Below, piece by piece: positions 22,895 to 62,667 of a stretch of DNA of 64,000 bases. The notes beneath the pieces were generated by a model. It had not been told where the DNA came from. It saw only the letters and a list, made by a program, of their open reading frames with translations, and searched no databases. The stretch comes from Felis catus (taxonomy: Eukaryota): NCBI RefSeq assembly GCF_018350175.1, contig NC_058382.1, positions 49,168,001-49,232,000 of the forward strand, given 5' to 3'. The position numbers were made by a program, and so were the translations under genes. Numbering within the stretch: position 1 is the first letter of the stretch; the number at the start of each line of letters is the position of its first letter.

Positions 22895-22990
22895 CTAAAG
22901 AGCCCAACAAGACAAAGTTAGTGTGGTTCTAGGAACCCTGACCTAACATGCTGACTGTGCACATGCACAGTCCTTATGTAGGGTTCTTAC

Positions 22991-37691: not shown

Positions 37692-40600
37692 CACTGGGGA
37701 AGTAATGTTCGTAAAAAGTATCAGCAAAGGAGAGAAAACATGCCAGGTAGCCGATATAATCACATCTAAGTCTTCTAGATGTTCTGTTTAAGATCATTCT
37801 CGGCAAAACTGAAAATCTTCAAGAGATTTTAGTTACTTATTTTAGGTCAGAAGGGTTCGGCCATCAACTTTTTCCCTCCGTAACAAGTACTTATAAAACT
37901 AGCTTTCCGGCTTACCCTTTACAAATGTGAAGGCATGTGATCACAGATGTTTCTAAAGCAGAAACATCTAGGAAATAAGAGGGTTGAACTACTGTATCTG
38001 AAAGTAATTTCCCAGACCTCCTGCAGTTCTTTGTCATGACCTGAAAACAGAGATTTACCAAAACAAATGCACAGAACGCTACATCTGATTTTAGTGGGCA
38101 ATATTCATCTTTCACAGCACCAAGTTACAAAGGATAAACAGAAAAAGGACATTTTTACACTTGCAAAATTAACTCAATACTAACTCAAAACAGAAATTTA
38201 CCTAATTTTTCCAAAAAAGGCTGAGCAAACCTGATTTACTTCATCCTTGCCATTATTTTTGTTTCCCCTCTCTAATGCCATTTGTTAGCCCATTTAACAA
38301 ATGTTTATTCAGTGCCTGTCATGTCCCTTTCCTTATTTGGTTCTTGTCTCTAATTCCACTATGTTAATCCATTCAAGAAATATTAAGCACCTGTTAAGTA
38401 GTCAGATCCCCCATAGAGGCAATGACAGGATAAAACTGTGTAAAGGATAAAATTCTGTCACAGAGTTTACATTCTAGCAAACACGAGAATAATCAAATAA
38501 ATGTGGAAATTATACATGGTGATATTTGGTTTTGGGAGGAGTCGCGGATTACCATTTTAGATGCTCTTTCAGAAAGACTGAAAATTGAGCCCAGGCATGA
38601 AGGACTAAAAGAAGCTGGCCATAGGAAGAGCCAAAGAAGAGTTTCAGAAGGAAAACAGTACACAGCTCCCTGATGAGCATGGGTTTGGTAAAACAGAAAC
38701 CAGACAGATGTAATGAACACAGTAATGAAGAGTGCAAGTATGGGATGAGGTTGATGAGGCCAAACACTAGCACTAAAAGCTTTGGTAAGGAGTTTCTTTT
38801 CTTTCTTTCTTTCTTTTTCTTTATTTGAAAGAGAGAGAGCGTGCACATGCACTAGCAGGGCAGAGTGGGAGAGAGAGAGAATATCAAGCAGGCTCTACGG
38901 TCAGTATGGAGCCCGACACGGGGCTTGATCTCACAACCCTGGGAACATGACCTGAGCTGAAATCAACAGTCAAGAGTCACCCGGGCGCCCCAGGAGTTTC
39001 TTTTATGTTAGGAATGGACTGTAGGGGGAGCAAGATTGCAAGTAAGCTAAGCCGTTTACAGACTACTTGTGGGAGTGCAAACTAGTGGTCCAGAAGCTTG
39101 GGCAAGAGTGGTAGCAGCGGAGATGGAAAGTAGTAGACAGCTGTAAGAACTGTCAGCATAGACATGTCACTTAAAATCATAGATTAAACTACCTAAGAAG
39201 GAAAGGGAGAGAAGAAAAGTGGGCCAAGGATTCAAAACCGAGAGGTTAACATTAAAAGGATAAGTTACAGGACAAGAGCGCAGAACAAAGGCTGTGAAGG
39301 AGGAGAAAACCTGGTAGAGCATGACGTCTCGGTCTTGGAAGAATGTTTCAAGGAGGGAATGGTCAAGTGTGTCTAGCGCAGAAGAATGGTCACTAGATTT
39401 AACAATGTAGCGAGGACACATAACCTAGAAAAGAGCAGTTTCCGCACAGCGAGGGGGCCCGAGGCCACACTGGGGTGGGCCAAGTAAGTAGATGGAATAC
39501 AATACACATGCTGGATGAAGCACACGTATCTTTCTTTTTCTAGTCATTCCTGAAAACCCATTAACATGACAACTCCCCCCAACTGCATTAGAGAAAGGAT
39601 AAAGGATAAATCACAAAGACAAAGCAAATTCAAACAGGGCATGAGACAATGCAATTTTTGCTAGAACTGGTAACTTCTTAGTAGAGCTGAAAAGATGAAG
39701 CCCAAATGACTGCAAAGAGGGGGTTACTGTGTGCTACAGAGAAGCAAGCGGACTCCCACCGAGGGGACTGCAGAAACCAGGCAACACAGAGGACAGTGTT
39801 GAACGTGGAGCTGAAGAACAGGACTGGTTGAAAGCCTGTCTCAAACGAACAAAAGCCAGCCAAACACACACCTCCTCCACCTCTGCTGTAGGAAGCTGGA
39901 GGTTTGTACCAGACAGGCTTAAGACCAGCATGGGTGACAGCAAAGCAGTGAAAATAAGCAGTTAAGTGCAAGTCTACAAACTGAACAGTGTGAGACTCTC
40001 CCAACTCTTCTCCTCACTTTTTCCCCCTGCACAAATCCGGGACACAATATTCTGGTTTATATACGTCCTCTACCTAAAGCAGGAAATTAGAGGACTCTTC
40101 TCTAGAAAAAAAAAAACCAACCTAAAAATACTGACAGTTGTGAATCCCCAAGAAAATGGGTGAGGCTCTGTCCCTCTATCTAACAGTAAAAGCCTACTAC
40201 CTGATAGCTTGACAGGGTTCAGCCACTCATATAAAGCTTCCAAACAGCCTCAAGGGGGAGGGCAGGGGCTCTCCTTAAAAAGGAACTAATAGCCAAGGAC
40301 CAACTGACATTTTGAGTAAAGCCTCCAAAATGAGGGAGAGACCAGAGCAGACAAACAAAAAACTTGGAGGGAAGAAAGGAAATTAATGCAAGAAACTGTA
40401 AAAAACAAAACAAAAACCAAAAACATATACAAACAAAAACAAAACAAAACAAAAAACTCCTCAAACTTACAAGAAAAGAATACCAGGGAGGAAAAAAGGA
40501 CACATTGGAAAACAAGGAAGAGCTCTGGGAAATGAAAAATGACAGATGACAGCCAAAATAAAATATTTAATACAAGGATCGGAAAAAGTCGAGGAACTCT

Positions 40601-41959: not shown

Positions 41960-42720
41960 GTAACGGGCGCCCAGCGGGAAAGCAATTCTATTTGCACATG
42001 AAGAGCTAGGGGCTCGGCACCCCGGATGGAGAACGGCCGGCGGCGGACTCTTCTCCTGCCTTTCCTGCCTTCACCCCCACCTCCGGCACCTCCCCGGTCA
42101 AGCCAGAAAAAGCGTGGGTTCGGGGCCCTCAACCCCAACCGTTGGGGCCGCCCGGAGCCACCGAACCTCCCTATGCTGCCAGGTTCTGTGCCCGCCCGCA
42201 GCTCCCCTCGTGGGGGCGACCCCAGGCCCTGCAGCCAGGGATCCAGCCCGGGAAGTTATCCTGGAGCCAAGGCCTGGGTAAAGGCAAGTGCTCCCCTTAC
42301 CTAAGGCCGGGGGATACACTGCAGGGCTTGCAAAATCGCTGCGGTGGCGGCCGTTTCTTCGGAAGAACTCGCACACTTCGGGGGCAGCAGCTACTTCCTG
42401 AGCAGCTCAAGCTGCCCGCCCGACTTGCGGGCGCAGCCTGCTCCTATTGGACAGCACTCCTAGACGGCAGCCAATACCCTCTCTTCTTCTTCCGTTGGTC
42501 TCCGCGGGCTGAAAAAGCGGCACTCTCATTGGCTGGTTCTTCATTGGCTTGTTCTTCGTAAACTGACTGCGCGAGGCCACGCGCAAGGGGTCCTTGTACA
42601 ATTGGTAGAAATCTTCGTCCGTCACCTTGTGCCCAGCCCACAAAGAGAAGACTCCAACAAGGGTTTCCCCGCTCTTTATTTGAACTTTCTGGCGGGAGAA
42701 AGTTGTAAAAAGATCCTTCG
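41960..42720 (-). promoter_or_regulatory. RFWD3: RFWD3 CpG-island promoter with CCAAT boxes, E2F-like sites and a CHR-like motif
   Basis: CpG-dense; CCAAT/ATTGG at 42446, 42471, 42528, 42543, 42601; TTTCCCCGC 42664, TTTGAA 42679, TGGCGGGA 42690. Confidence 0.8.
42301..42420 (-). other. RFWD3: RFWD3 non-coding exon 1 (5' end approximate)
   Basis: strong donor TTAG|GTAAGG at 42301/42300 inside the CpG island, directly downstream of a CCAAT cluster. Confidence 0.65.
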
Positions 42721-43899: not shown

Positions 43900-45830
43900 G
43901 GAAAAAGAACAATCTCCTTTACCAAATATTGACGACCAGAACAGTGTTGGCCTGCAGTCCTTTTGCTAATTCCCATAGCAAAGAGATAATAGACTTAAAT
44001 GTAAATTCTAAAAACTATAAAACTTCTGCAAGAGAGCAGAAGAAAATATTCCTGACCTTGGGTTAGGTAAAGATTTTTTAGATATGACCCTCAAAAGCAT
44101 GACTCATACGAACAAAAACTGATCAATTGGATCCCATCAAAATTTAAAACTCTGCTCTCCAAAAGACATTGTTTGGAAAATGAAAGATGAACTGCACACA
44201 GGTAGAAAAAATTTGCAAATCATGTATCTGATAAAGGGTTTGTACCCACCATTTATAGAGAACCCTCAAAACTCAATAACTGGCAAAACAAAACAACCCA
44301 ATTTAAAATATGGGCACAAGATTTGAACAGACACTGGGCCAAAGAAGATGTATGGACAACAAGTTAAATGAAAGGATCCTCAACATTATTAGTCATTAAG
44401 GGAATGTAAATTAGAGGCTCAATGACATACCGCCATTATATAATTATTAGAATTGCCAAAATTAAAAATCCTGGCCATACCAAATGTTGGCTAGGATATA
44501 GAGGAACTGGAGCTACACTGCTAGTGGCATGGAAAATTCCACAACTCTTTTGGAAAACAGTTTGACAGTTTCTTAAAAAGTTAAATGTGATCTTATGATC
44601 ACATATAATCCAGCAATTTGTTTTTAGGTTTGTACCCAACAGAAAGGAAAGCATATGGTCAAATAAAGACTTGTATGTGAAAGTTCGTAGCAGCCTTATT
44701 TCTCATAGCCAAAAGCAATAGACAATTCAAATTTTCATCAACAGGTGAATGGATAAAAAATGCGAAATCCATACAATGCAATTGTTTTCAACAGTCAGAA
44801 GGAATGAATTAGCAATACATGCAAGCACGTGGATGAATCTTCAAATAATTATATTGAGTAAAAGAAAGCAAATTTTACACACCGAATGATTTCAGGCACA
44901 TAAAATCTTAAAATGGAAACTAATCTATAGTGGCAGAGAGTAGGTCAGTGGTTGCCTAGGGGGAAAGGGGAGTAGAAGGCAGTGATTACAAAGGAGCATG
45001 AGGACGCTTTGGGAGTTGATGGGTATATTCATTATGTTGATTGCGGTGGTATATACATACATCAAAACTTATCAAATTACATTGGGGGGTCTGGGTGGCC
45101 CAGTTGGTTAAGCCTCCGACTTTGGCTCAGGTCATGATCTCCTGGTTTGTGGGTTCAAGCCCTGCATTGACTCTGTGCTGACAGCTTGGAGCCTAGAGCC
45201 TGCTTTGGATTCTTGTCTCTTCCTCTCTCTGCTCTTCCCCTGCTCACACTCTGTCTCTCCCTAAAAAATAAGTAAACATTAAAGAAAGTTTTAAAAACTT
45301 ACCAAATCACACACTTTTAAGTATTATAGTTTATTGTATGATAATTATACCTCAAAAATGCTGCTAAAAGTCAAGATTGCGGGGCAGGAGTGGATTGTAT
45401 GGGCATAATGGAACTTTCTGGCATGATGATAATGTTTATTATCTTGATGGGGTTTAAGTTACTCATGTGTATACATTTGTGAAAACTCATCACATGGTAT
45501 GTTTAATATTTGTGCATTTCACAACATCGAAAATTTACCTGCCCCCTGCCCCCAAAACGCATAAACAAACATTAAACTCTAGTTCATGATAGAAATGCTG
45601 AAGTGTTTAGAAATGAAGTGTACTGATGCCTGATATTTTCTTTTAAATGCATAAAAAATAAGGATGGGTTAATGGGTATAAAGAGGCATGGTTATAGAGG
45701 TGTGTGATAAATATAGTACATCGTTAGTTGTAGAATTTAGGTGATGAGTACACAGGTGTTTGGAGTGTAACCCCACTGATTTTTTGGTGTATTTGAAAAT
45801 TTTCATAAATAGTGTTGGAGAAAAAAATTA
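43900..45830 (+). mobile_element. Old L1MC-like 3' region upstream of the RFWD3 promoter, with a SINE insertion
   Basis: gacttaaatgtaa, tatctgataaagg, caacaggtgaatggataaa motifs. Confidence 0.75.
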
Positions 45831-46169
45831 GGTACAAGGCCTTAGAGGATGTCCTGTGGAAGAGAGGGACCCAGGAGATTAAGTGTTGTAAGTTTCTTTT
45901 CTTTTTTTTTTATGTTTTATTTCATTTTTGAGAGAGAGAGAGAGTGCAAGTGGAGCAGGGACAGAGAGAGAGAGGGAGGCACAGAATCCAAAGCAGGCTC
46001 TAGGCTCTGAGCTGTCAGCACAGAGCCCAATGCGGGGCTTGAACCCATGAACTGGGGGATCATGACCTGAACCAAAGTCGGAGGCTTAATCGACTGAGCC
46101 ACCCAGGTGCCCCTAAGTGTTGTAAGTTTCACAGTGAATCCACTTCTGCTGTGGGTCTGCCTGAGTATA

Positions 46170-46207
46170 CATAATTAATCTACAAGAAAGACTTCTCATT
46201 GTACCTC
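46170..46207 (-). pseudogene. MLKL: Possible MLKL terminal exon remnant
   Basis: good acceptor tcccttgtctttgctgtag at 46208 in the expected position, but weak protein similarity (GTMRSLSCRL). Confidence 0.25.
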
Positions 46208-47353
46208 CTACAGCAAAGACAAGGGATTTTAAAGATGAAAATTGTAGTACCCGATAAACTCTAGAAAAGAATACTTTTAAATGTTCAGCCTGTCCATATT
46301 TATTCTTCTCCATTTTTTTATTTATAGAAAAAATATGTTCCAGGTTTTTAAAGAAACAAGAATAAGTAAACAGTAAAAAAAAAAAAAAAAAAAAAGAAAT
46401 CAGCCATAATTTTATTCCTCAGAGATGATTACTAGACTATAAGCTCCAAATGTATTTTGTCTATTGTCTCCTCAGTGATCAGAACAATGCCCAGCGCATT
46501 TGCTATTGAATGACTTGGGATGAGTTCTGGGGGGGGGGGGGGGGGGGGGGGGGTGGGGAACAACACGTAGAGGTAAGTGTTAGTGTATCCTAGGTAAAGC
46601 ATACACCATGAGCAAAAGCGTAAAAATTCAGAACAAATGGGCCACATGCAGGAGACACGGGTCTGAGTCCGTCAGGGTTTAAAATTGAGAGCTCTTAGGC
46701 TAACATACTGTGTCCTCTACAACACTAAAATAATTTTTAATAGATGCCAACTTTTAAAAAGATGAAAAATTTACAGAAAAATATGAATTTTCAGCAACTT
46801 TTTTTTTTTTTTTTTTGCATAACAGAAAGCTCTGGAAATATTAGAACCCCTTTCCTATGTGATAAAAATAGGCTGGAGCAGAGTAGAGGCTGTCCTTCTC
46901 TACAAAGTTCATTTGTTTGCTGAAGTCCCCTCCAGGCTCAACTTAACACATTTAGGTTCCCCTCCTAGACTCTTTAGGTAACCAGAGTTTGCAGTCTCTA
47001 GTAGGAGAGCTCTGGGATCTGATACTGGAAGTTAGGTTTGGGTCAGATATACAAGGCCACGGGTATCCACTGAAGAATTCGTACCGATTTCTATGGGCAA
47101 GGGGAAGGATTGAACAGTGTTTGCTCAGTTACTACCCTTTATACTCTGTAGTAACTTTAGTGGAAACACTTCCCCATTCCAGGGATGCTCTCCTCTGTCT
47201 GGAGCTTTGTGGAAGGTCTGAGAGATGTGGATCTAGAATGGGAGGAGACATTCCCAGGGACGGAGATGGTGTGAAGAAACTATGGATAAGCAGCTAATAA
47301 CATGGTGAGATAAAAATCCGAGGAGGAGAAATTATCCCAGGGATACTGGAAAA

Positions 47354-47475
47354 TGGAAGGAAGGAAGGAAGGAAGGAAGGAAGGAAGGAAGGAAAGAAGG
47401 AAGGATGGAAGGAAGAGAGAGAGGGAGGAAAAAAGACAGAGAGAGAGAGAGAAGGGGGGGAAGAGAGAGAGAAAG
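47354..47475. repeat. (GGAA)n/GA-rich low-complexity tract
   Basis: directly visible. Confidence 0.9.
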
Positions 47476-47539
47476 AATATAGGCTGGCGTAAAGTAATCT
47501 GCCTTCTGAACCTACTTTGGACTAAGCAGTGGCCTTAGG

Positions 47540-47745
47540 GCAGGGTTTCTGAATAACACTGATGTTTGGCTGGATAATTCTTTGTTGTAGGGGGCTCTCC
47601 TGTGCACTGTAGGGTGCTAAGCAGTATCTGTCCACTAGATGCCAGTAGCATGCCCCACCCGCCAAATTGTGAAAACCAGCAATGTCTTAAGAGATTGCCA
47701 AATGTCCCCTGAGAAGCAAAACCACCCCTGGTTGTGATCCACAAA
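47540..47745. mobile_element. MER20-like hAT MITE inside a former MLKL intron
   Basis: ggataattctttgttgt...cctgtgcactgtagg...cactagatgccagtagca...aaatgtcccctg. Confidence 0.8.
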
Positions 47746-47811
47746 GGAAATCTTTCACAAATGTGAAATAACACGTGTGGTTCATGCTCTTCAGACCGCA
47801 AAGAACCCCAC

Positions 47812-47949
47812 CTTTAAGAGAGAGCCACCTGGAGGGCTCCCGTGCCTGGGAATCATCAAGGATCTCCTGCAACTGTGAAGGGCAGTCATCACCCAGTGGC
47901 TCCTAGTGCCGGTCCACAGATACCAGCTGGTAAATTTTAGAATCACAGC
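47812..47949 (-). pseudogene. MLKL: MLKL pseudo-exon (penultimate): [44 protein letters not shown]
   Basis: similar to human [45 protein letters not shown]; in-frame TAG at 47905-47903; AG/GT intact. Confidence 0.92.
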
Positions 47950-48196
47950 CTGGCATGGAAACAATGACATGAGAGGTTTAAAAAATTGCTCTGGCACTCA
48001 CATACCTCTCTGGATGCTAATGGCTGGCATCAGAACTAGGGAAGAAACAAGAAACAAGAGCTTCCAGTGACCCCACTGACCAGTCCGGGCAATGCCCACT
48101 TTGAAGAATGGACCTCCCAGGACAGCATTGATGGGAATCTCTAGTCTATTGAAAGGGGAACCCAAACCCATCTGAGCCAGCCTTCACACTGGTTAC

Positions 48197-48246
48197 TTTC
48201 AAACGGGATCTTCCCAGTGACGATTTCCCAGAGGACAATTCTAAAG
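48197..48246 (-). pseudogene. MLKL: MLKL pseudo-exon, kinase subdomain IX: [16 protein letters not shown]
   Basis: similar to human SFGIVLWEIATGDIPFQ; 50 nt; expected acceptor AG reads GG; donor GTAACC. Confidence 0.92.
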
Positions 48247-48463
48247 CCAAAAGAAAACCAAGAAACTGAACAATCATGACGGGTTTCCCTTTTTCCATAC
48301 CTCTCTATTTCCATAAAGCTCTGAATTTTCTCATTACCACCCAGTACCACTCAACAGAGTTGAGTTCTGAGGGTCCTCAGAAGTTTAACTTGGGCTTTCC
48401 CACTCGGTTCACTGAGTTAGAATCTTCACGAGAAGACGGACATAGCTGTATATTTAAGCTTTT

Positions 48464-48677
48464 TTTTTTTTAACTTTTTTAAATTTATTTTTGAGACAGA
48501 GAGAGACAAAGCATGAACGGGGGAGGGGCAGAGAGAGAGGGAGACACAGAATCCGAAACAGGCTCCAGGCTCTGAGCCATCAGCCCAGAGCCCGACGCGG
48601 GGCTCGAACTCACGGACCGAGAGATCGTGACCTGAGCTGAAGTCGGAGGCTTAACCGGCTGAGCCACCCAGGCGCCC
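48464..48677 (-). mobile_element. Young feline SINE inserted at the 3' edge of an MLKL pseudo-exon
   Basis: perfect duplication ctgtatatttaagctttt at 48446-48463 and 48678-48695. Confidence 0.95.
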
Positions 48678-48829
48678 CTGTATATTTAAGCTTTTATGGC
48701 ATATTTATTATACACATTTTCCAGTATCTGAAGTGAGAAGTAGGGTGCAGAATTGACTCTCTTAGCCTTTTTTCTCCCAGTTTCTTAACTGATGGAAGTC
48801 TGTGATTTGCTCACTTGAAATCCTACAGG
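48678..48829 (-). pseudogene. MLKL: MLKL pseudo-exon, activation loop: PVGFQVSKSQTSIS*ETGRKKAKRVNSAPYFSLQILENVYNKYAIKA*IYS
   Basis: similar to human [51 protein letters not shown]; TAA stops at 48787-48785 and 48688-48686; acceptor reads AA, donor reads CT. Confidence 0.92.
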
Positions 48830-49249
48830 TTAGACACCAAGGCGACTTACAGACAGAACGAAATAGCACAATCTTGGGTGGGGGTGGGGGGTAGAGGGCA
48901 GAGGGCTGGTGTTACTCATGACTGTCAGGGAAAAACTACAGGACGTATTTCCACCGGTATCTTCTACCTGGGTGACTACACTAGTAACATTATGGATTCA
49001 ACTTATTATTGGGCAGCAACCAAGAGAAACACAGAGAAGTTTCTTCTGTATAAAATGGGGCAACGCGGATCACTCGAGATAATGGTTATAAAGCACCTGT
49101 AAACTTGGTAAGTTGTAGTTGTCCTCGCATTCCTGTATTAGATACGGGGCTTTCTCAGTTGAGGACTCAACTCCACTAAGTGAGGCTGGACAGGGTGCAC
49201 AGAGCCACCCTATGGCTTGCTTTCTCTCCGAAGCAGGCGAAGACAGAGG

Positions 49250-49597
49250 GTATTACTCTAAAGCGAAGTAAGTCAGAGAAAGACAAATATCCTATGATTT
49301 TGTATGTGGAATTTAAGAAGCAAAACAGATGAACATAGGGGAAGGGAAGGAAAAAAAAGATGGGATAAAAACAGAGAAGGAGGCAAACCATAAGAGACTC
49401 TTAAGTACAGAGAACAAACTGAGATCAAACTCAGGGGTGGGGGATGTGGGTGGGGGCTGGGCTACACAGGTGGTGGGCATCAAGGAGGGCACTTGCTGGG
49501 ATGAGCACTGGGTGTTGTATGTAAGTGAGGAATCACTAAAGTTTATACCCGAAACCAATACTATATGTTAACTAACTTGCATTTAAATTAAAAAAAG
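49250..49597 (+). mobile_element. Carnivore L1 3' end
   Basis: aagtcagagaaagacaaata...gggatgagcactgggtgttgtatgtaag...actaacttg followed by an A tail. Confidence 0.85.
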
Positions 49598-50553
49598 ATG
49601 ATGTGAAGAAACCAATTTTGCATCATGTTAATTAGAGTTTGTTGATTACTATAAAATTGAAAATTGCTGTTCTGCCTTCGCTAAAAAAAAAAAAAATAAA
49701 TAAATAAATAAAAAATCATGCCCCACGTCGGGCTCTGTGCTGACAGCTCAGAGCCCGGAACCTGCTTCGGATTCTGTGTCTCCCTCTCTCTCTCTACCCC
49801 TCCCCTGCTCACACTCTGCCTCTCTCTCTCTCAAAAATAAATAAGCGTTAAAAAAAAATTAAAATTAAAAAAAGCAGCAGGTGAGAAAATGATATGGGGG
49901 CATCCCTCACCCCCTCTGGTCTATCCGACCCTATAGGATGGCCAGCCTCTGCCTTTGGATTTAATATGACAACTGTGAGTTACTCTGTTGGCCCTGCTTG
50001 GTCAACACCGTGACTTTAAAGAAGCCACAGCACAACTGATGTTCCCTTTGCTCCACGCACGCTGGCCATTAGTGCCATGCCTTAGTCCAGAGAACTGCCA
50101 GCCCCAAACTCAGCCAGACACCCAACTCTAGAGGCAAGGTCAGGAAAAGGAGTAGACGCTTAGATGGCTCATTCCCCTTTCACTCACATGTTTACTGAGC
50201 ACTGACGTCCTCTGACATCTAACGCCCCGCTGGATACCGGGGATGAAAGGCTGAGAAGCACATGTTTCAGTCCGGTGAGGACCACGAGAGTGGCACGGGC
50301 ACGGTGTTTGAGAGCACTTATATCCCACTGGCGAGGGGGAAAGGCATCTGAAAGTCAGGAAAGACCTATCTTGTGTTATTTAAGGGCTGTCCCAGGCACT
50401 TGTAAGGCTGGAAGAAAGTCATCTGTGGATGACAAAGAGAATATTCTTCTAGCATTTGGGAATTGTGGACATCGAGTTAACAAAACCTTTTCCTCTTCTG
50501 TAAAAGGATCTTTCAGTTAACTTAAAAAAATTTTTTTTAATGTTTATTTATTT

Positions 50554-50598
<45 letters not shown>

Positions 50599-51549
50599 CA
50601 TGACTGGGGGAGGGCAGAGAGGTAGACACAGAATCCAAAGCAGGCTCCAGGCTCTAAGCTGTCCACATAGAGCCTGACGTGGGGCTCTATGAACTCATGA
50701 ACCATGAGATCATGACCTGAGCTGAAGTCGGACGCTTAACCCACTGAGCCACCCAGGCACCCCTCAGTTAACTTTTTAGCTCCATTCCCCTGAGAACCTG
50801 ATAAGGGCAGATGGTCATCTATGTGCCCAAATATTGCTGATGATTAAAGCCCCCTGATTGGTAAATTGCTTATGAGCTAGGGGTTGGGAGGGTATGAGAA
50901 CTATAAATGAGGGATGCTGGGCTCTGTGGCCACTCTTATTACTGACACACCCTTTGTGGTGACACCTGAAGATATGCCCATGGAGTTGTTACAAGAGAAT
51001 ATTGACTCCTGTGTGTCACAAGGCTTCTAAGCCTGGATGGCCCCACACCCACCGGAGGGAAGCCTCTTTCGCTAGCACCTGGGGTGAGAGCAAAGAGAAT
51101 ATCTCCTGGATGACTGTGGGGACAGCTGCGGGGACTCCCACTGGAGAGAGGGATTTGATGCTATCCTCTGCCAAGCCATGTATCCTGCATGCCATTACTC
51201 TCAATGCCAAGTGTGGCTTATGGTAGTCTCATGAGTCTGAATGCCTAGTTGGATCTAGGAAAATCCTGCAGGGACACAGAAGTGGTGTCCAGGTATTTAA
51301 GTGGAAATGACTCTTAGCCTGTCCCTGCTAAGCAGGTGTGAGGGAAGATAGGCATCAGAACAGCAGGCAGGATTGAGCCTATCCTGTGGTGGGCACACGG
51401 AAAACTGTCCAGGCAGGTGTAGAGGTGAGCCCAGTGCTAAGGTTAAGGCAGAGAAACAAGCAAGCACAGCCTTTCCGGGAAACATGTGTCCCTTTCCCAG
51501 CATTAGTGACACAGGTCGAAATCAGAGTCACCCGGAAGACTGTGCTCAC

Positions 51550-51634
51550 CATCACTTTGTAGCAGTCTGTCACCAGGAAGCTCGAGCTCTTGATGTTTCC
51601 GTGGGGTTCTGCAGGTGCTTCCAAATGGTGCTGT
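51550..51634 (-). pseudogene. MLKL: MLKL pseudo-exon, pseudo-catalytic loop: QHHLEAPAEPHGNIKSSSFLVTDCYKVM
   Basis: similar to human [28 protein letters not shown]; CAG acceptor and GTGAGC donor intact, no stop. Confidence 0.9.
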
Positions 51635-51779
51635 CTGACACGACCAAAAGCATTATATACCCACATCAGTTGTTTGACGGCTATGGATGAAGGGCGAGGG
51701 GCCCTGGGACAGGGACGGGAGGCTATAAAACTTTTAGGCACTTTCAACTACCCATAAGTGCCAAGGGTCTTCATAATTT

Positions 51780-52300
51780 TACATATAGAAATTTTACATA
51801 TAGAAAACCCAAAGAATTCATAAAATTCTTTTTACTAGAGCTAATAAATGAATTCAGGGGTACCTGGGTGGCTCAGTTAGTTAAGCCTCCGACTTCCGCT
51901 CAGGTCACGATCTCCCAGTTCACTAGTTCAAGTCCCCTGTCAGGCTCTGTGCTGACATCTCAGAGACTGAATCCTGCTTCAGATTCGTTGTCTCCTGCTT
52001 TCTCTGCCCCTCCCCCACTCACGCTCTGTCTCTCTCTAAGAAATAAATAAGCATTAAAAAAAGTAAAATAAATGAATTCAGCAGAGTTGCATGATACAAG
52101 ACTAACACATGAAAGTCAGCTGTGTTTCTATAAATCAGTAATGAAAAAGACAAGAAGGAAATTAAGAAAACAATTCCATTTACAATAGCAGCCAAAAGAA
52201 TAAAATATTTGGGAGTAAATGTGAGCAAGTGGGTGAAAAGACATGTACGCTGAAAATGACAAAACAGTGCAGAAAAAAAAAAGAGCTCTAGGAATAAATA
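51780..52300 (+). mobile_element. L1 ORF2 fragment split by a SINE
   Basis: tatagaaaaccc...ctaataaatgaattcag (duplicated around the SINE)...aattccatttacaatagca. Confidence 0.8.
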
Positions 52301-52518
52301 TGTGGACCCCACTCCTCTCCATCCTGCCAATCTCTTGTAGGTGCCTCTATTTGCAGCCAATAAGCAAGTGAAGAAACTGACGCAGTTCACACACAGTATG
52401 GCGTGGAATGGGGGAAAGATGCAGAGTGAATCGGGAGAACAAATGGAAAATAACTAGCACATCTCGTAATTCTAATGTTTGATGTCTTTGTGAGTGTATT
52501 TCTGTTGCATATTGTTTC

Positions 52519-52645
52519 TTTTCTTTTTTAATATAATTTATTGTCAAGTTGGCTAACATACTCTTGGTTTTGGGGGTAGATTCCCATGCTTCATCACTTA
52601 CATACAACACCCAGTGCTCATCCCAAGTGCCCTCCTCAATGCCCA
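52519..52645 (-). mobile_element. Minimal L1 3'-end insertion with 18-bp target-site duplication
   Basis: tctgttgcatattgtttc at 52501-52518 and 52646-52663. Confidence 0.88.
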
Positions 52646-53199
52646 TCTGTTGCATATTGTTTCCATCAGCTTTTATTCATGGTGCCTTTTTTCCTTGTGC
52701 GTTTTGTTTTGTTTTTATTGTGAGTTATAGTCCTTGGAATTTTATCTGTGGGAATTTTAGGGGACCTTGATTTATGTTGCATTTCTCCACAGAAATTTAT
52801 AAGGGCTCCTGCTGAAAGCCCTGGGGTTTCACCAGTCGGGAATACTTTACATGAAATTTTTGACCTGGGGTGTTTCAGACCACCCAGTTTGCATAAATTC
52901 AGGCTTCAGACCTCCATCAGGGCTGTGCTTGTGGTTCTACATTCTCAAGAGAAACTTTCTCCTCTCCATGCAGGCAGTGCCCTGGGAAGGTAGGTTTATT
53001 TCTGGTTCACTCTTACACTGACAATACAGCCCTTTGGGTTCTGTGGCAGACATATATGGTGACCCTGTTCTCACCCTTCTGTCCACCTCTGGTCTTAACC
53101 TTAATTGTGGCAGAAGGTTCTGTCTGACCACTGTCTCAGCTTTGATTTTGGCCACAGTTACAAGCGGAAGCTCCCACTCAGCTTGTAGTAATTGTATCC

Positions 53200-53483
53200 C
53201 ATTTCAAGTACACACATCCATCTCTCTGCTTTTGCTCCAGGACCTTTGTCAAAGAATCTGGTTGGCTTACATGCCTGGACAACTTGTAAGTGAGGAGGGA
53301 GTAGACACCCGGGAAGAAATCCTCAACCAACAGGAAAGGAAGCTGGTCGATAAACGTTCCAGCCTCTTGTCCTTTAGGTGGACAATCCTGGCAGATACCC
53401 TGTCTGCTTCTCAAGATGACCCTGTAGAATCTGCATAAGAACCTCACACACTCATCCTTAAAATTAAAAAAAAAAATGTTTAC

Positions 53484-53535
<52 letters not shown>

Positions 53536-53832
53536 TAAGCAGGGGAGGGGCAGAGAGAGAGGGAGACACAGAATCCAAAGTGGGCTCCAGGCTCTGAGCT
53601 GTCAGCACAGAGCCCGATGTGGGGCTCAAACTCACAAATGGTGAGATCATGACCTGAGCCTAAGTCAGATGCTTAAGCAACTGAGCCACCCAGGCGCCCC
53701 TCACATACTCATCCTTATATGCTCTCCCCCACTTTCCCTTTCTAATCCTTCCCAATTCCTCACTCTATTTCCACAATCACCTCCCAAATTAACTACTATG
53801 TCCATGTTCTCGTTTTAGGGACCCTAAATGAA
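53200..53832 (+). mobile_element. Possible ancient ERVL LTR16-like solo LTR split by a SINE
   Basis: 3' end cacctcccaaattaactact...ttttagggaccctaaa resembles the LTR16 terminus as recalled. Confidence 0.4.
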
Positions 53833-55284
53833 AATCGGTTCCCCCCGCTTTATGCTTTTGCCAAAACAAGATCTCCTTCTCCTTCTCCTTCTTTCTCCTT
53901 CTTCTTCCTCTTTATCACTTCTTTTTTCCTGCTACAAGCTTATAAGGTATTGGGGATGGAGTGAAGATGAGAGTTCTGGCATTTTCCAAATTTCACATTC
54001 AACTTGCAGCATCCTTAGTAGGTACAAATTATTCATTGTGCTATTATCACCTCACTGTAAAGAAAGCTCCAGTCAAATCTCTACAGCCAGCATATCTTCA
54101 TAGAAAATTAGAACCAGAAACTCATCAACATAGTTCCAGGTTTCCCTCAAAAACATCAGATGAGACAAAACAGTAAGTCAAGAGAACACGTAAAGTGGAA
54201 AAGTGCTGGAATTTTACAACCAGTGACATCTGATTTGCAGTCACGAAGGCAGTCAGAAGGGGCAGAGCCCCATGCTGTCAGCAGAGGGCAGCAGAGGCCA
54301 GAGAACAGGTGGAGAAGCAAGACTCCAACAATGTAACCCGTCAGAGATTTGACAGAGACAAGACTAACATTTATTGAAGCCTGTTACAAGTTGGGCATTG
54401 TGCTGGGCACAATAAGAAATGGTACAAAGTTCAAAGACAGAGAACAGAAGCCAGAGCCAATGGAGGAAAAGAACGGAGTCCAGTTAAAAGGGCAGTTCTT
54501 CAGGTCAGCCAAGAAACGCCCAAAGACAGCCTATCTAGAAGTACAAGCACAGCGCCAGAAATAAATAGAATGGCTAGGGCCTGTCCTCTGCCAGGGCAGC
54601 TGGCTTGTTGGTACAGAATCAGATAGGGTAAATTGCTCGGATCACTGAATCATTCAGCCTGGATATTTACACCAATCAGAATTTCAATGGCCCTTTGCCT
54701 GAGCAAACATTCAACTTTCTTGATGGTTTTGTGTCTGCTCCCACTACAGAAATAAATATAATCACGTGCCATGAGTTCCAGGCTTTCCCATCATGCTATC
54801 TGTGTTGGCATTTTGATAATGCCCCTGCTTGCTTTAGATCTGATCTTTGGCTCATGTCTCTTGCACATGATAATAAATTCCCTGACTTTACTAGACGGTC
54901 GCTGAGCAAGGAATGCACCATGAGTACCAATTTGCTTGAGGTTAAGAGCCTCATAGCACTTATATTCTTTTCTGTACAGTGAGACTTACTGTCTTTCAAA
55001 GGCTCTGTGGAAATTCCTAACCCCCTGGAAAGTTCTAGTGGGCACAGGAAGCTCTGGGGGAATCTGTCCAATGTTCACCAAGAAGACTTTCTCATTAATA
55101 GGTTGGCTTGGTTTTACTATTTTTTCCCCTAAATCTTATTATCATGCTATAAACTTACTTGGATTTCAGTGTTTCTTATGAGTTTTGTTTCAATCTTTTT
55201 AAATAAGTTTTTTCCAGTGCTTTTTTTTTTTTTTTTTTTTTTGCTCAAACTTGTTCATCTTAGACTTTTCTCTGATGGACTTAC

Positions 55285-55600
55285 ATATTTACACCCAAGC
55301 AATCTCTTCCTCTGTGCTTCCTTCTTGTTTCTTCCTGTTCCTTGGGTGCGATGCTCTGCTGTCAGATTTCCAGCAACATCGAGGAAACACAGGTTGTGAT
55401 TTCTGCCGCTTGGATGGGCCGGATTGCAGGAGCTTGTGGGATGGGTGGCTCAGACAGGTCACACCTGTCTTCAGGCTGGGAGCCACATGGACAAAGTCAC
55501 CGCGTGGCTGCTGGAGCAGGGAGAGGCAGCAGGGGCGGGGGCTCTCGCCTCGTCGCCAGAGTCTCACCAACGTTAGCTTTCTATCCGCTTCCCCATCTTT
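55285..55600 (-). pseudogene. MLKL: Probable MLKL non-coding exon 1 and proximal promoter remnant
   Basis: unique, mildly CpG-rich segment just downstream of the FA2H 3' end, with consensus donor AT|GTAAGT at 55285/55284 and a GC box (GGGGCGGGG ~55532); syntenic position. 5' end uncertain. Confidence 0.5.
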
Positions 55601-56340
55601 AGGCAGGCGAATTCACAGCCCACCTCCGCCGGACCGATTGAATTAGACACTGAGGGTGGAGGACTTGGATCTGTACTTCGACAGGTTCCCCAGGTGGGAA
55701 CTGACGTGGCTGAGAAGGCATCCCAGGAAACTAGGTTACATCTAGACCGAACTGGCCTGAAATTCTAGTTCCCACTGTGGGCATTTGTTGTTACAGCCTT
55801 TCCCCCTTCATTTTAGGAAAGTCGACTGGAACCTCATTTGGGATCTGATAAATTCCAGAAGAAACACTTCCCCAGTGGTGCATCAAGGCGGCTGGTAAGA
55901 ATGCCGACCCTCCAGCTCCAGCCCATGTCCCGGCAGTGAGGGGAGATGTGGTCTGCGGAGAATTTTAAGACAGTAATAAGACCGAATAAGAGGATAAGAG
56001 TTGGCAAGCTTTGCAGCATGGAGCCTGCTTGGGATTCTCTCTCTCCCTCTTTCTCTGCCCTTCCCCTGCGCCTGCCTGCTCTCTCAAAATAAGTAGAATA
56101 AACTTGAAAAAAGAAAGAGTCGGCAAGCTTTTTATCATCACTATGCTCCAGCAAGTCCACACAGCCTGGTCAGTAGTAACATAAACACCCCTCCCTGCTG
56201 GACCAACTGCCTTCTTCCCCTCCCCCCCCCCCCCCGTCACCCCTCCCCCACTCCCCCCCCCCCCCCCCCCCGCCATGAAGTTTGGTGAGGCCCCAGTCAA
56301 CAAGTGCCAACAAACTTTTGTTGATTTCTTTTTCAAGGTT

Positions 56341-56405
56341 TTTATTTTTCAAAATATACAATTTATTTACACCTTTATGTCACAACTGTAGTTTGTATAT
56401 TTATT
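56341..56405 (-). terminator. FA2H: FA2H polyadenylation signals (three AATAAA)
   Basis: tttatt at 56341, 56362 and 56400 in an AT-rich segment ~1.4 kb after the FA2H stop. Confidence 0.7.
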
Positions 56406-57752
56406 CCAAAATCTTTAAATAACTCCACAGTAAACAGTACAAATCACAGGATCCGTCAAGCTGCTTCTCTGTAGCCTTTACACTCTTAGAGATTCTAAAA
56501 TGTTTCAAGTAGTAACGGTTTCTGGGTGAGAAGAGAACAAAAACGGGACAAAATGTCTTACATAAGCCTGATGTGTGGGATTAGATATGGCGATCTGAGC
56601 AGCTACTCGGTCGGGGGCCAGACTAAGGGCATTGATATAGTTGATAAATAAGACCCTCTCATGAGCAGTGAGGGTTTTGGTTACGAGGCGGGGGTGGGAA
56701 CCTCATCTGCTGGGGGAGGTGCAGGGAAGCAGCTGGGGAGGGGGTAAGGCACCGCATGAAGGCTCCTTCTCGGCGTGAGGAGGTGCTGGCTGGAAGGGTC
56801 CTGAGTGGGGCGGCGGAGGCCCACCGGTGCCAGGCGGAGGTCAAGAATGGCCAGAGACGGGGTGGGGCTCCTGCCCACCGAGAGGCCCCGGTCGCCTCCC
56901 CCGGGGAAAAGCTGTGTGATTCTGAAGGCAGGTGGGGAGGTGGCTAGAGGAGCTGGCGGTTCCTCAAGAAAGGGGCCCGGGGTCCCGCCAGCTAGGAGGC
57001 CATGCCAGAGGCCCCCCGCCCCTCTGCACAGGCCGGTAAGGGCCGGGCGTGTGGCTGGGGCACGTGTGGCAGCCTGAGGCATCCGGCGGTGCAGCTGGCA
57101 TTTGTGATCGGGGGCAGGGGACAAAGGCACTGCTCCGGGTCTGGAGGTGGCCCATGGGAGGCATCATGTTGTCTCTCTCTTTGTGAGAGCCCTTCATCCA
57201 CCTCAGTGCTCTCCTCTCATCAGGAGAACAGCCAGAGCCACCAAACCCTCCCCGGGAAGGGAGGAAGAGGAAGACGAGGACCCCTGGCCCCGTAGACTCA
57301 CTTTGCTGTTAACACCGGCAGCTCCACCACTGGGCGGTGGGGGGGGTTCTCCCAGGTGGCCCAAGGTGCTGAGACACAGGTGGGTCACAGGCCTGGCCCC
57401 AGGGGTCAGTTTCCTTCATTCCCCTTGGGAAATTCCCCATTGGCCAGGTCCTGAAGCCATCCTGTGGGCAGGGAAGCTAATGGAGAGGCCAGGACGCTCT
57501 AGAAAAGAGATAGACCCTGAGAGCCACCTGGGCGCCTCGTGGACATGACCCTCCAGTGGGGGGTCAGGAGGGCAGTCTCAGGGTCTGTCTCAGTCTTCCG
57601 GGTCTCTCCAGCATGCCCCCACCAAGCCCAAAGGCCCGACAAAGCCTGTCCCGCCTGGCCAAGCGAACCTTCTTTGCAGGGTCTGGATGGGGGGTGGGGG
57701 TGAGGCAGGGGCCACGGCTGGGCTGAGGGCAGGACGGTGGGGCTGGGAGTTG

Positions 57753-57832
57753 TCACTGCATCTTCAGGTGGGGCTCTTCCGGCATAAGGGTGTGGAAGAA
57801 ATGATCCCACAATTTAGTGCTGATGCCAAATC
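57753..57832 (-). CDS. FA2H: FA2H last exon (GFGISTKLWDHFFHTLMPEEPHLKMQ*)
   Basis: ttctctag acceptor, 80 nt, phase 1, TGA at 57755-57753. Confidence 0.95.
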
Positions 57833-58299
57833 CTAGAGAAGGAGAGAAATGGGGAGAAGATGAGGGACCGGTGAAGGCGTGGGAGAAATTTCCTCGGGAA
57901 GGGAGCCTGGGGAGGGCTAGCACGCAGGCAGGGTTTGAACATCTGTCCCCGCTGGCCTTCCCATCTCTCAGGGCCCTCCTGGCAGAGGTTGAGAGCAGAG
58001 TACTTGTGTTTGTAGTCTCCCAAGGATGCCACTGGAATAAACCCAAGTTCCTTATCCAGCCTGTGTTTGGTGGGAGAGCCTGGCCCTTGCCTGAGTCTCT
58101 TCCCCTCTGTCTCACACTTCAGCTTCTTCCTTCTCTTTGGAGATGTCAAGTTCATTCCTGCTGCAGAGGCTGGAACAGAGGCTTTGCACCTGTTGCTTCT
58201 GGGATGTTCTTTCCCCAGACATTGGATGCTGGCTTCTCTTAGCTTAGGCCTCAGCTGTAAAGACACTTCTGCAATGATATGTTCCTAGACCACTTTACC

Positions 58300-60110
58300 T
58301 AGTGCTGTTTCATCCAATGCGGTAGCCACTGACCTGTGTGGCTGCTGAGCCCCGAGAATGTGGCTGGAGCTACGGAGGCACTCGATTCCTAATTTCATTT
58401 CATTTCATTTCATTTTTTTTTTTCTAATGCTAATTTATTTTTGAGGGAGATAGAGACAGAGACAGAGCGTGAGTGGTGGAGGGGCAGAGAGAGAGGGAGA
58501 CACAGAATCCGAAGCAGGCTCCAGGCTCTGAACTGTTAGCACAGAGCCCGATATGAGGCTGGAACTCGTGAACCACAAGATCATGACCTGAGCCAAAGTT
58601 GGAGGCTTAACCTACTGAGCCACCCAGGTGCGCCCCCCCCCCACCGTTGTAAGTTTTAATTTCATTTTATTTAAAAAATTTTTTTTAAATGTTTATTTAT
58701 TTTTGACACAGATAGAGACAGAGCATGAGCAGGGGAGGGGCAGAGAGAGAGGGAGACACAGAATCCGAAGCAGGCTCCAGGCTCTGAACTGTCAGCACAG
58801 AGTCCGACATGGGGCTCGAACTCACAGACCACGAGATCATGATCTGAGCCGAAGTCGGACACCCAACAGACTGAGCCACCCAGGTGCCCCAATTTCATTT
58901 TATTTTAAATAACTTTAATTCCAATTTAAAATTTTATAGTTGACTGAGTTACTGGAAAACTTTTTTAAATTAATTAATTTATTTTTTACGTTTATTTATT
59001 TATTTTGAAGGGGGGGCAGAGAGAGAATCCCAAGCAGGTTCCCTGCTGTCAGCAAAGAGCCCCACACAGGGCTTGATCTCCTGAACTGTGAGATCATGAC
59101 CTGAATTGAAATTAAGAGTCAGAAACTTAACCAACTGAGCCACCCAGGCACCCCTATTTATTTATTTTGAGAGGGAGACAGAGTGAGCGAGCAAGAATCC
59201 CAAGCAGGCTTTGCACTGTCAGCATGAAGCCTGACTCGGGGCTCAAACTCACAAACTGTGGGATCATGACCTGAGCCGAAATCAAGAGTCATGAGTTGAG
59301 TGATTATTCAACCAACTGAGCCACCCAGGCACCCCGATCTACTGAAAAACTTTTAGGCATGTTTAGGACAACTCACCTAATGTGAATTCACTTTTTTAAA
59401 TAGTCAATTTTATAAACTCTAAATACAGATCAAGTATTTCTAATAAGGGGCGCCTGGGTGACTCAGTCGATTAAGCGTCTGACTTCGGCTCAGGTCATGA
59501 TCTTGTGGTTTGTGAGTTCGAGCCCCGCATTAGGCTCTGTGCTGACAGCTTGGAGCCTGGAGCCTGCTTCGGATTCTGTGTCTCCCTCTCTCTCTGCCCC
59601 TCCCCTGCTCATGCTCTATGTCTCTCTCAAAAATAAATAAGCATTAAAAATTTTTTTAAAGCATTTCTAATGAAAACTTAGCACTTGAATTGAGATGTGC
59701 CGTAAGTGCAAAGTACACACTAGATGTTGTGAAGATGTAACATAAGAAAAATAATGTAAAATATCTCATTAGCGATTTTTTATATTGGTTACAGGCGGAA
59801 ATGGTAATATTTTGGTTGTATTTGGCTTAATAAAATATATTGGTTTTTTTACTTTTTTTAATGTTAATTTTTTTTTGAGAGAGAGAGACGGAGTGCAAGC
59901 AGGGGAGGGGCAGAGAGAGAGGGAGACACAGAATCCAAAGTAGGCTCCAGGTTCCAACCTGTCAACACAGAGCCTGACATGGGGCTTGAACCCATGAACC
60001 AGAAGATCATGACCTGAGCTGAAGTCAGATGTCCAACTGACTAAGCCACCCAGCGCCCCTTAATAAAATATATAATAAAAATTTTTTAAAAAATGTTTTT
60101 ATTTATATTT

Positions 60111-60148
<38 letters not shown>

Positions 60149-60405
60149 AAGCTTGAATGGGGGAGGGGCAGAGAGACAGAGACAGAATCTGAAGCATGCC
60201 CAGGCTCCAAGCTGTTAGCACAGAGCCTGATGCAGGGCTGGAACCCATGAGCCGACGTCAGGCGCTTAACCCACTGAGCCACCCAGGCACCTGTAAAATA
60301 TATTATTAAAACTAACTATATCTGTTTAATTTTGCTTGTTAACGTGGCTACTAGAAAATTTGAAATCACATCTGTGACTCGCGTTGTTTTTATGACACAG
60401 AGCCG
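58300..60405. mobile_element. MER33/Charlie5-like hAT element fragmented by seven CanSINEs (FA2H last intron)
   Basis: gtgctg..tccaatgcggtagccact at the left end, gtggctactagaaaatttgaaatcaca at the right, gaattgagatgtgccgtaagtg internal. Confidence 0.7.
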
Positions 60406-60627: not shown

Positions 60628-60880
60628 CTGACTGCTGATGTGCAAAGTGATGCTTGACGTGGTGAGCCTTCATGTTGTACAGGTAGGAGCCCTTGTGCGG
60701 CGAGCCGAAGTGCAGGTAGTAATGTGTCATGTCGTAGAGGATGTACCCCAGGAGGCCCCCAGTGAACACAGTGCCCCCCACCGCCTCCGGCAGGAGGAGC
60801 TGTAGCAACGCGTAGAAGAAGGCAATGCCCAGAGAAGCCGGCACCGGGGGAAAGACCAGGCGGGACTCATCGAAGGGTGC
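60628..60880 (-). CDS. FA2H: FA2H penultimate exon ([12 protein letters not shown]...[11 protein letters not shown]...[14 protein letters not shown])
   Basis: AG/GTGAGG flanks, 253 nt; histidine boxes of fatty acid 2-hydroxylase. Confidence 0.97.
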
Positions 60881-62189
60881 CTGCGGAGGGAGAGGCTCAC
60901 GCGTCAGCAGACGGCCGGGCGGGCGGCCTGCCTGTGGTCCCAGCACCGCAGAGGACAGGGGCAGAGCCGCCCGCGCGTTCCAGTGAGGCGGCAGCAACCT
61001 GTCACGGGTGGGCTTGGCACCTTCGGTGGCTTTGGGGAGGGCAGGCCACCATGCTTGAAGGCCCTTGAGAGACTGTCCCGCTCCCAATTTCCAAGCCAGG
61101 ACGGGCCCTGGAGACCTGTCCAAGAACAGGGCGGCGGACGTGATGTGGGCGGCCGGCGGGCTCCCAGCCCAGGAGGCCACGTTGGCCCTGGAACTTGTTA
61201 GGTGCTAGAGAGGAGCCTCACCGCCAGATACCATGCGGGGTACCCGGACGGAGGCCTGATGTTGTCTGGGGGGCCAGCGCACCAGCAAGAGGAGGTTAAC
61301 GCAGGCTCACAGGGTAGACCGGTACCAGAAGTGTGAGCGGATGCGGTCTCCCTGTCCCCACCTCCTAGGGGGCGTTCCAAGGGGGTGTGGTCACAGTGAA
61401 GCAGCTAAGAGAGCCGAGCCTTAGACTCCAGCTTCAACAGCCAAGGGCCTGGCATAGAGGTAAGGTTTTAGAGACTGCTTGGTGAGTGTTCTGAGAAGGG
61501 ACAGACCCTCTCTGGGCTGGAGGAGAAGAGAGAGAGAAAGCAGGTAATAGCCACAGAGCAATGCGCGGGTGTGGGCCTCCCCCCCCCCCCCCCCCCCCCA
61601 TCCCAGGACCAGCTCCTGGAAGAAAAAGGCAGGAAGGGAGGGAAGCGGGGAGGGAGAAAAGAAGAAAGACAGTTGAGAGCACAGACTCTGGGGTTCACAG
61701 AATGGGGCCCAACATCCTGGCTGTGCCAGGTGTGACTTTGGACAAGTTCCTCAGTTTCTTAATTTCTCTAAGCCTCAGTTTGCGGCTCTGCGGAATGGGG
61801 AGAACTGTAGCACCATCCTCAGAAGGAAGCTCCACCAGGACAGTGAGTTTTTAGTTTTGTTCTGCTGTGTCTAGAACAGTGCCCGCAGGTAGTGAGCGCT
61901 CAGTGAACGTCTGTCGAATGAACGAACGAACGAATGAATGAGATGCTGTGAGGATTAAAGATGACGGCTGAAATGTACCTGCAGCGTGCCTGGTGTCAAT
62001 AATGAATGGTGTGCAGACACGCATGCTCACTCCGTCCACGCCCGCTTCCAGTTACGACCCAGTCACCCCTCTGAGCAGCAGCAAATGCCCTGATGGCCAC
62101 TTGTTCCCGGCCTGACTCCCAGAAAGATCAGCAGCTCCCCCGAGCGGGTCACGGTTGCCAGGCCCCGGGCAGGAGCCTGCCCTGCTCAC

Positions 62190-62362
62190 CTTGTGGTGCT
62201 GGCCATGCAGGACGAAGTGCAGCAGGATAAGGTAATAGCTGTCCCCGGGGGGCTTCATGTGGAACAGGAAGCGGTGGATGAGGTACTCCGTGAGGCTCCA
62301 GAGGAGCAGCCCCAGCACGAAGAGGCCCGGGAACACGGACTTAGGCATGGCCACCGAGTACT
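62190..62362 (-). CDS. FA2H: FA2H exon 5 ([18 protein letters not shown]...[10 protein letters not shown]...LHGQHHK); upstream exons lie beyond the window
   Basis: ctgcag/gtgagc flanks, 173 nt, phase 1 to 0; HxxxH and HxxHH boxes. Confidence 0.97.
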
Positions 62363-62667
62363 CTGCAGAATGGCCAGACAGAGGCAAAGTCAGGGCAGAC
62401 AGCCCCAGTGGGCGCTAAGGCCTGGTGGCTCCAGACACGCCATCTCACGGCCCCGTCACCTTGGGGGCTGCTGCTCTCCATCCAGCAGCTCTGGGGCCGG
62501 GCCACACTGATGGGACTCTTGGGTCAAAATGGGAAGGAGGCCGTGAGGGGCTGCGGCGCTCAGAGGGGTCCTCCCTGGGAACAATGGGGCTGCTGGCCAG
62601 AGGTCTGGGATCTTCCTTAGGGGGACTGAGGGGAGCAGCTGTTGCCAGTGCTGGAAATTTCTCTGGT

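Follow-up and report, generated by a model that had tools for sequence, protein, structure and literature searches.

Does the genome of the cat still hold the gene for MLKL, a pseudokinase and the terminal effector of necroptosis, and if not, what is left at the place where the gene should stand? We address this question in a stretch of 64,000 nt from Felis catus (GCF_018350175.1, NC_058382.1:49,168,001-49,232,000, forward strand), which we call the window and in which all positions below are counted unless another contig is named. A first-pass annotation had marked positions 46170-55600 of the window as a fossil of MLKL lying between FA2H and RFWD3. We find there an intron-containing relic of the 3' part of the gene, interrupted by nonsense codons, mutated splice sites and the insertion of a short interspersed element (SINE), and we consider it almost certain that the locus is a unitary (non-processed) MLKL pseudogene that has kept its ancestral place, with FA2H and RFWD3 on either side.

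Four pseudo-exons of the MLKL C-lobe

Reading the DNA again, we recovered four minus-strand pseudo-exons with the coordinates, frames and consistent phases proposed in the first-pass annotation; the motif EPLGDDCP is present. For comparison we used P0008, a protein of 478 residues with the source name Carlito syrichta MLKL that, among six proteins tested against Pfam, has MLKL_N and an entire kinase domain; two gene models from cetaceans, P0005 and P0009 (fin whale), the latter with part of MLKL_N and the N-lobe; the bat model P0012, which consists of MLKL_N plus the C-terminus; and the cetacean-like sequence P0004. Pseudo-exon A (51550-51634) covers the catalytic-loop region (P0008 residues 311-345), contains no stop and keeps both its acceptor (cAG) and its donor (GTGAGC). 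Pseudo-exon B (48678-48829; P0008 residues 346-393, 62.5% identity) reads GFQ for GFE and has the activation loop QTSIS. Pseudo-exon C (48197-48246; P0008 residues 385-410) has a dead acceptor, GG, and an intact donor, GTAACC, and pseudo-exon D (47812-47949) holds a TAG stop between an intact acceptor (cAG) and an intact donor (GTGGGG). The hallmarks of MLKL that can still be recognised are the GFE-type motif, the catalytic-loop HG(K/N) and the activation-loop QTS(I/M)S.

In their order the four pieces follow residues 311-455, the C-lobe, of an MLKL of 471-478 residues, and their phases agree at every junction: A begins with one base and ends on a codon; B begins on a codon and leaves AG; C gives C (AGC, Ser) and leaves A; and D gives GC (AGC; Gly in orthologues) and leaves G. 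The gaps between them measure 2720, 431 and 247 bp, and no frameshifting indel occurs within the ~425 bp of pseudo-exon sequence. The relic does lie inside the annotated interval of 46170-55600 and is narrower than it, MLKL-like sequence being confined to ~47635-51634 (minus strand); a 216-bp SINE in pseudo-exon B had gone unmentioned.

The identification as MLKL, and as no other kinase, was borne out by searches with individual exons. Against all PDB chains, every one of the nine matches of exon A at E<=10 is an MLKL (best 6vc0_A, E 2e-4), as are all 11 matches of exon B (best E 1.1e-10). Among 15 matches of exon D the top 11 are MLKL (E<=1e-6; best 6vc0_A, E 2.5e-12), and the remaining four have E>=0.48. 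Exon C is too short for a single PDB search and is weak alone; in the translated read-through described below it matches the MLKL stretch IVLWEIATGK(I/V)PFE at E 0.13-0.19, in the correct order and phase. Identity to 6vc0_A, counted by hand from the alignments, is 18/26 for A, 30/49 for B, 12/14 for C and 26/42 for D (61-86%), and identity to P0008 is 53-65% per exon. When exon D was compared exhaustively with 1.84 billion representative proteins, 17 of them matched at E<=1e-3, P0008 among them; eight of the ten that were looked up have a source name, and four of these eight names are mixed lineage kinase domain-like. A word-indexed protein search with exons A and D had given no candidate, the matches of exon D being found later by the exhaustive search, and a scan of metagenome contigs for relatives of exon D gave 599 pattern matches, of which none was confirmed.

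When eight MLKL-family proteins were compared by tblastn with both strands of the whole window, a kind of check that the first-pass annotation had proposed, their MLKL matches fell on the exons of the relic and on adjoining intron, the MLKL exons matched corresponding to P0008 residues 311-476. The intron 3' of exon D is conserved with P0004 (67% over 98 translated residues, tblastn).

Other exon boundaries were considered. Extending exon A upstream raised its score against 6vc0_A from 23.8 to 28.4 bits; P0005 translates the bases upstream of exon A as AFGRVR, where the spliced P0009 has GAARGLYR, and this stretch is therefore conserved intron and the cAG acceptor is right, so the extension was rejected. 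An alternative acceptor for exon C, tttAG, was also rejected, because under the original model S-F-R stands for S-F-G with no indel, and its exon C start fits both the AG left by exon B and a gtatgt-like donor. In the bat model P0012, 27 residues represent out-of-frame exon C and the following intron and are 89% identical to the out-of-frame translation of 48167-48247 (minus strand); this model was probably mis-spliced at exon C.

A short terminal coding pseudo-exon may follow at 47635-47708 (minus strand), reading (G)DIWQSLKTLLVFT...*. Its acceptor, ttttgcttctcAG at 47710-47709, is strong, its phase fits exon D, and its LKTLLVFT agrees with LKKLSVFT of P0008 at six of eight residues (PAM30 tblastn, E 0.19); we retain it as an unproven candidate. 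An earlier candidate at 47128-47193 was dropped, having no PDB match.

The relic sits downstream of the 3' exons of FA2H and upstream of the 5' exons of RFWD3, and all three are on the minus strand. The passages of PMC8445033 on this region give RFWD3-MLKL-FA2H as the gene order in human and mouse, and report the loss of MLKL in Carnivora; together with the flanking exons found here, they uphold both statements of the first-pass annotation, that MLKL belongs between these neighbours and that carnivorans have lost it.

Disabling lesions and a SINE insertion

Three in-frame stops interrupt the pseudo-exons: TAA at 48787-48785 and TAA at 48688-48686 in exon B, and TAG at 47905-47903 in exon D, where orthologues have Gln. 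Two acceptors are dead, with AA at 48831-48830 (tctAA before exon B) and GG at 48248-48247 (ttttcttttGG before exon C), and one donor is dead, with CT at 48445-48444 (ctatgt for gtatgt, a G to C change). These counts are the same as those given in the first-pass annotation. The remaining five of the eight splice sites are still AG or GT.

The dead donor follows the second copy of a target-site duplication. A SINE of 216 bp with an A-rich tail (48461-48677, minus strand) interrupts the final 15 bp of pseudo-exon B and is flanked by a perfect 15-bp duplication, AGCTTAAATATACAG, on the minus strand, whose first copy lies at 48678-48692 and whose second copy lies at 48446-48460. The stop TAA 48688-48686 falls inside the duplication and is present in both copies; that stop therefore predates the insertion, and the SINE is not the first lesion. 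Any order among the remaining lesions is a matter that we infer rather than observe.

The SINE belongs to a tRNA-derived-looking family that gives 40 BLAST matches in the window, with 67-94% identity to the copy inside the relic; other copies lie, for example, at 4648-4860 (the best, 94%), 20102-20303 and 58679-58889. Its 5' end is probably that of a carnivore CAN-SINE; a literature search for the 5' motif found nothing.

The missing 5' part and the absence of a second copy

The promoter and the upstream exons of MLKL are expected between the putative poly(A) signals of FA2H and exon A, at 51635-56345 (minus strand), and no MLKL is detectable there. We translated 45301-60300 of the minus strand in three frames, with X at stops, and compared this read-through with the PDB, which includes full-length human (6lk5_A) and mouse (4btf_A) MLKL. 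MLKL accounts for 10 of 19, 5 of 11 and 11 of 21 of the sequences matched in the three frames, always at the four exons, with no further stretch at E<=10. A Pfam read-through of 51635-56345 detected no MLKL sequence, and P0008 residues 1-310 found no counterpart by tblastn in the window except for a single chance-level match on the opposite strand (34959-35000, E 0.63). For the N-lobe and brace, there is no match to P0008 residues 210-310 in the window and none in the three-frame read-through against the PDB; for the four-helix bundle, no match to P0012 residues 1-183 or P0008 residues 1-209 was found in the window or in the genome.

The genome searched comprises 2.43 Gb in 71 contigs at chromosome scale. 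Pfam MLKL_N (PF22215) gave three matches genome-wide at E<=10, none above its cut-off. P0012 has two matches in the genome, both within the relic. P0008 has 39 matches at E<=1, all inside residues 210-469, and the two in the relic alone exceed 50% identity: the relic is 54-65% identical to P0008, and the other kinases of the genome are 19-45% identical to it. Outside the relic, the best matches to full-length MLKL are at C17:52853485-52854243 (plus strand; 30%) and C31:4625043-4625777 (minus strand; 28%). Searches of the genome with exon A, B or D, or with 691 bp of DNA from the relic, returned nothing but the query itself. The four-helix bundle, the brace and the N-lobe are absent, and the genome has no second copy of MLKL; an intact MLKL elsewhere, which the first-pass annotation had named as evidence that would tell against it, was found by none of the searches with P0008, P0012, MLKL_N, the exons or the relic DNA. 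The kinase domains on C17 and C31 are each contained in one open frame, of 487 and 525 aa respectively, and belong to kinases other than MLKL.

Four gene models, P0004, P0005, P0009 and P0012, were taken for a time as carnivoran models that keep N-terminal exons. The idea was dropped because the source names of P0005, P0009 and P0012 are those of cetaceans and a bat, and P0004 is cetacean-like.

Because only ~4.7 kb, partly SINEs, separates the putative 3' end of FA2H from exon A, a deletion appears the likeliest mechanism of the 5' loss.

A proposed history of the locus

The surviving 3' end of the gene consists of four certain pseudo-exons, possibly with a short terminal one, and these code for the pseudokinase C-lobe at about residues 311-455. 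It is disabled by the nonsense codons (three), the mutated splice sites (two acceptors and a donor) and the SINE insertion. The promoter and the upstream exons are gone, and with them the four-helix bundle that permeabilises membranes, the brace and the N-lobe; presumably they were lost by deletion. Since no protein product is possible and there is no other copy, we infer that the animal lacks MLKL-dependent necroptosis. The first-pass annotation had reached the same view, that canonical RIPK3-MLKL necroptosis is closed to this animal; the view follows from the lesions and the lack of a second copy, and it is shared by the relevant passages of PMC8445033, PMC8411117 and PMC12119088.

The RIPK3 gene of the same genome was located through its RIP homotypic interaction motif (RHIM) and confirmed against the PDB, where its top six matches are RIPK3 (E 5e-47). 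Its catalytic loop, at C15 ~74519154-74519489 (minus strand), reads HRN for HRD (LLHRNLKPSN, compared with LLHRDLKPSN in mouse); the VAVK lysine and the DFG motif are present, and the RHIM lies ~3 kb downstream. Feline RIPK3 is described in a passage of PMC12119088 as having a mutated catalytic residue and failing to activate cell death, with which the HRN sequence agrees.

A fuller account would be that the gene was beheaded by a deletion, which took the promoter, the four-helix bundle and the N-lobe, and that its exons for the C-lobe, which faces RIPK3, drifted neutrally, with the change of the catalytic Asp of RIPK3 to Asn in the same genome, and that this exon-level anatomy may be unreported; taken as a whole, we think this account doubtful. 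Were it true, and were the breakpoints and the TAA and TAG stops common to feliforms and caniforms, the relic would show when, and in what order, necroptosis was dismantled in the carnivoran stem. In a bolder form of the proposal, the relic may still be transcribed and have some regulatory use.

Alternative explanations

Could the locus instead be a processed MLKL retrocopy that landed by chance between FA2H and RFWD3? Beyond the presence of MLKL-like coding pieces, nothing speaks for this. The pieces are split exactly at fitting phases, AG or GT remnants persist at five of the eight boundaries, 247-2720 bp lie between the pieces, and the intron sequence beside exons A and D is conserved with the models of other mammals; the location and orientation, with FA2H and RFWD3 on either side, are those of the ancestral locus. 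The intron-sized gaps, the splice-site remnants and the conserved flanking intron therefore exclude a retrocopy for practical purposes, and the first-pass annotation was right to read this as the intron-containing ancestral gene. An equally slender chance attaches to the notion that the pieces are fragments of a different kinase, or similar to MLKL by accident. Exon C taken singly would allow it, with its E of 0.13-0.19, and motifs of the IVLWEI type occur in many kinases; exons A and B, however, match only MLKL in the PDB, the matches of exon D to other proteins begin only at E 0.48, the order of the four pieces is that of MLKL residues 311-455, and the gap between 54-65% identity to P0008 for the relic and 19-45% for the other kinases of the genome is wide. 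That an assembly error, a collapse or a mis-join, hides the 5' exons is likewise barely credible: in its favour is an interval of only ~4.7 kb, dense in SINEs, from FA2H to exon A, but the window contains no N, the genome is chromosome-scale in 71 contigs, no N-terminal MLKL lies on any contig, and 15 runs hold at least half of the words sampled from 46170-55600, by index look-up only.

Highly unlikely, in our estimation, is a relic that still functions, be it by giving a non-coding RNA, by lending exons to a neighbour's transcript or by encoding a short C-lobe peptide that acts as a RIPK3-binding decoy. Intact splice sites at five of eight boundaries and the lack of a frameshifting indel in ~425 bp would suit such a role, and P0009, which is a gene prediction and not a transcript, continues into the orthologue of the RFWD3 CpG island. 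Against this stand stops in two of the four exons, the missing promoter region and start codon, the three dead splice sites and the SINE in exon B, and no Rfam family was found in 44000-58000.

Some points weigh against our interpretation of the locus as a beheaded unitary pseudogene without a second copy. The genome-wide protein searches score only candidates from a loose first look, so a very divergent copy could escape them. In 143 open-frame pieces of 45.5-57 kb Pfam detected none of the four true pseudo-exons, and its negatives on such short exons therefore carry little weight. The choice of deletion over extreme decay of the 5' part comes from the small space and the lack of a match, not from an alignment, and default BLASTP gives no alignment for the candidate terminal exon at 47635-47708. 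The unitary pseudogene nevertheless accounts for what was found: an intron-containing relic with lesions at the orthologous locus, no functional paralogue or second copy among the first-look candidates, and functional orthologues elsewhere, as seen from P0008, with MLKL_N and a full kinase domain, and from MLKL structures of several species. Of the features that define MLKL, the locus has the MLKL-specific C-lobe and the position between RFWD3 and FA2H, and it has no four-helix bundle, no N-lobe and brace and no open, spliceable frame.

Comparison with published losses of MLKL

The loss of MLKL in Carnivora, and the existence of MLKL pseudogenes there, is already in print. In the passages concerned, PMC8445033, PMC8411117, PMC12119088 and PMC11014510 all credit the loss to Dondelinger et al. 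2016. The abstract of PMC8445033 speaks of a gene deleted in carnivores, and its results mention MLKL pseudogenes identified earlier in carnivores, with no further discussion in that passage. Carnivoran cells are incapable of necroptosis because MLKL is missing, according to a passage of PMC8411117, and an automated screen counted cat, dog, ferret, panda, walrus and Weddell seal among the species that have lost MLKL (PMC7498332, in the part dealing with this gene); the corresponding part of PMC7225364 gives MLKL as intact in the Malayan pangolin. Our analysis concerns the same gene and arrives at the same conclusion of no functional MLKL, but the published passages are without exon anatomy, whereas here the gene is neither deleted outright nor only mutated: the four to five exons of the 3' end persist with defined lesions, and the 5' two-thirds are absent. 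In the open literature, the original 2016 description and the supplements of PMC8445033 aside, we found no exon-level description of a carnivoran MLKL relic.

The cetacean MLKL pseudogene, as presented in passages of PMC8445033, resembles that of the cat in being unitary, at the same locus and marked by a premature stop and the loss of 5' exons, nine of 11 species having lost exons 2-5; P0005 and P0009, both cetacean, can be aligned with the exons of the cat relic and the intron beside them. Unlike in the cat, the cetacean loss was an independent event in another order, the first exon and N-lobe were kept, and RIPK3 was also lost. In leporids, as in the cat, the gene is missing between an intact RFWD3 and an intact FA2H, but the same source, in the passage on rabbit, has no partial or complete MLKL retrievable, whereas the cat keeps a recognisable 3' relic. 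Functional MLKL (PDB 6vc0, 6lk5 and 4btf; P0008) shares the C-lobe with the relic, which is without the four-helix bundle, the brace, the N-lobe and an open frame.

Our additions are modest. They concern how much of the gene is left, the SINE and when it inserted relative to one stop, the absence of the 5' two-thirds, and the HRN motif of RIPK3. A record at the level of coordinates reconciles, for the cat genome, the published terms 'deleted' and 'pseudogene', since the gene has lost its 5' two-thirds and kept its 3' exons. The lesions listed can be checked for sharing across carnivoran families; known biology is unchanged. The absence of MLKL, together with a reduced set of inflammasomes, is discussed in a passage of PMC8411117 as shaping the carriage of pathogens by carnivores.

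Flanking genes

Upstream of the relic, the last coding exon of FA2H lies at 57753-57832 (minus strand), with its stop at 57755-57753 and a splice phase that fits the donor at 60627-60626. This tail has no Pfam match, and presumably it belongs to FA2H. AATAAA signals at 56405, 56367 and 56346 suggest the putative 3' end of that gene. The exon at 60628-60871 (minus strand) bears the histidine motifs of a fatty-acid hydroxylase, and a further FA2H exon lies within 62055-62414 (minus strand); both match FA_hydroxylase (PF04116), the matches having E 8e-6 (profile 41-116) and E 2.6e-5 (profile 1-38).

On the other side, an open frame at 37221-37787 (minus strand; ATG at 37691) is the putative first coding exon of RFWD3; it has no Pfam match, and we take it to be the RFWD3 N-terminus. 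The RING-finger exon of RFWD3 is at 22946-23209 (minus strand; zf-RING_2, E 1.7e-9), and its WD40 exons occupy 4149-13734 (minus strand) with open frames at 13372-13734, 4948-5646 and 4149-4496, which match WD40_RFWD3 (PF23419) with E-values of 1e-11, 4.5e-20 and 1.7e-17 and are colinear with the profile. The promoter of RFWD3 is probably a CpG-rich patch at ~41.5-43 kb. Residues 332-398 of the fin-whale model P0009 match 42397-42597 (minus strand) with 49% identity (E 5e-10), and the matches of its tail span 42.0-42.6 kb. P0009 thus looks like an annotation artefact: the model evidently runs out of the MLKL relic of the whale and on into the orthologue of this CpG-rich region, and the match of its tail here confirms the conserved synteny.

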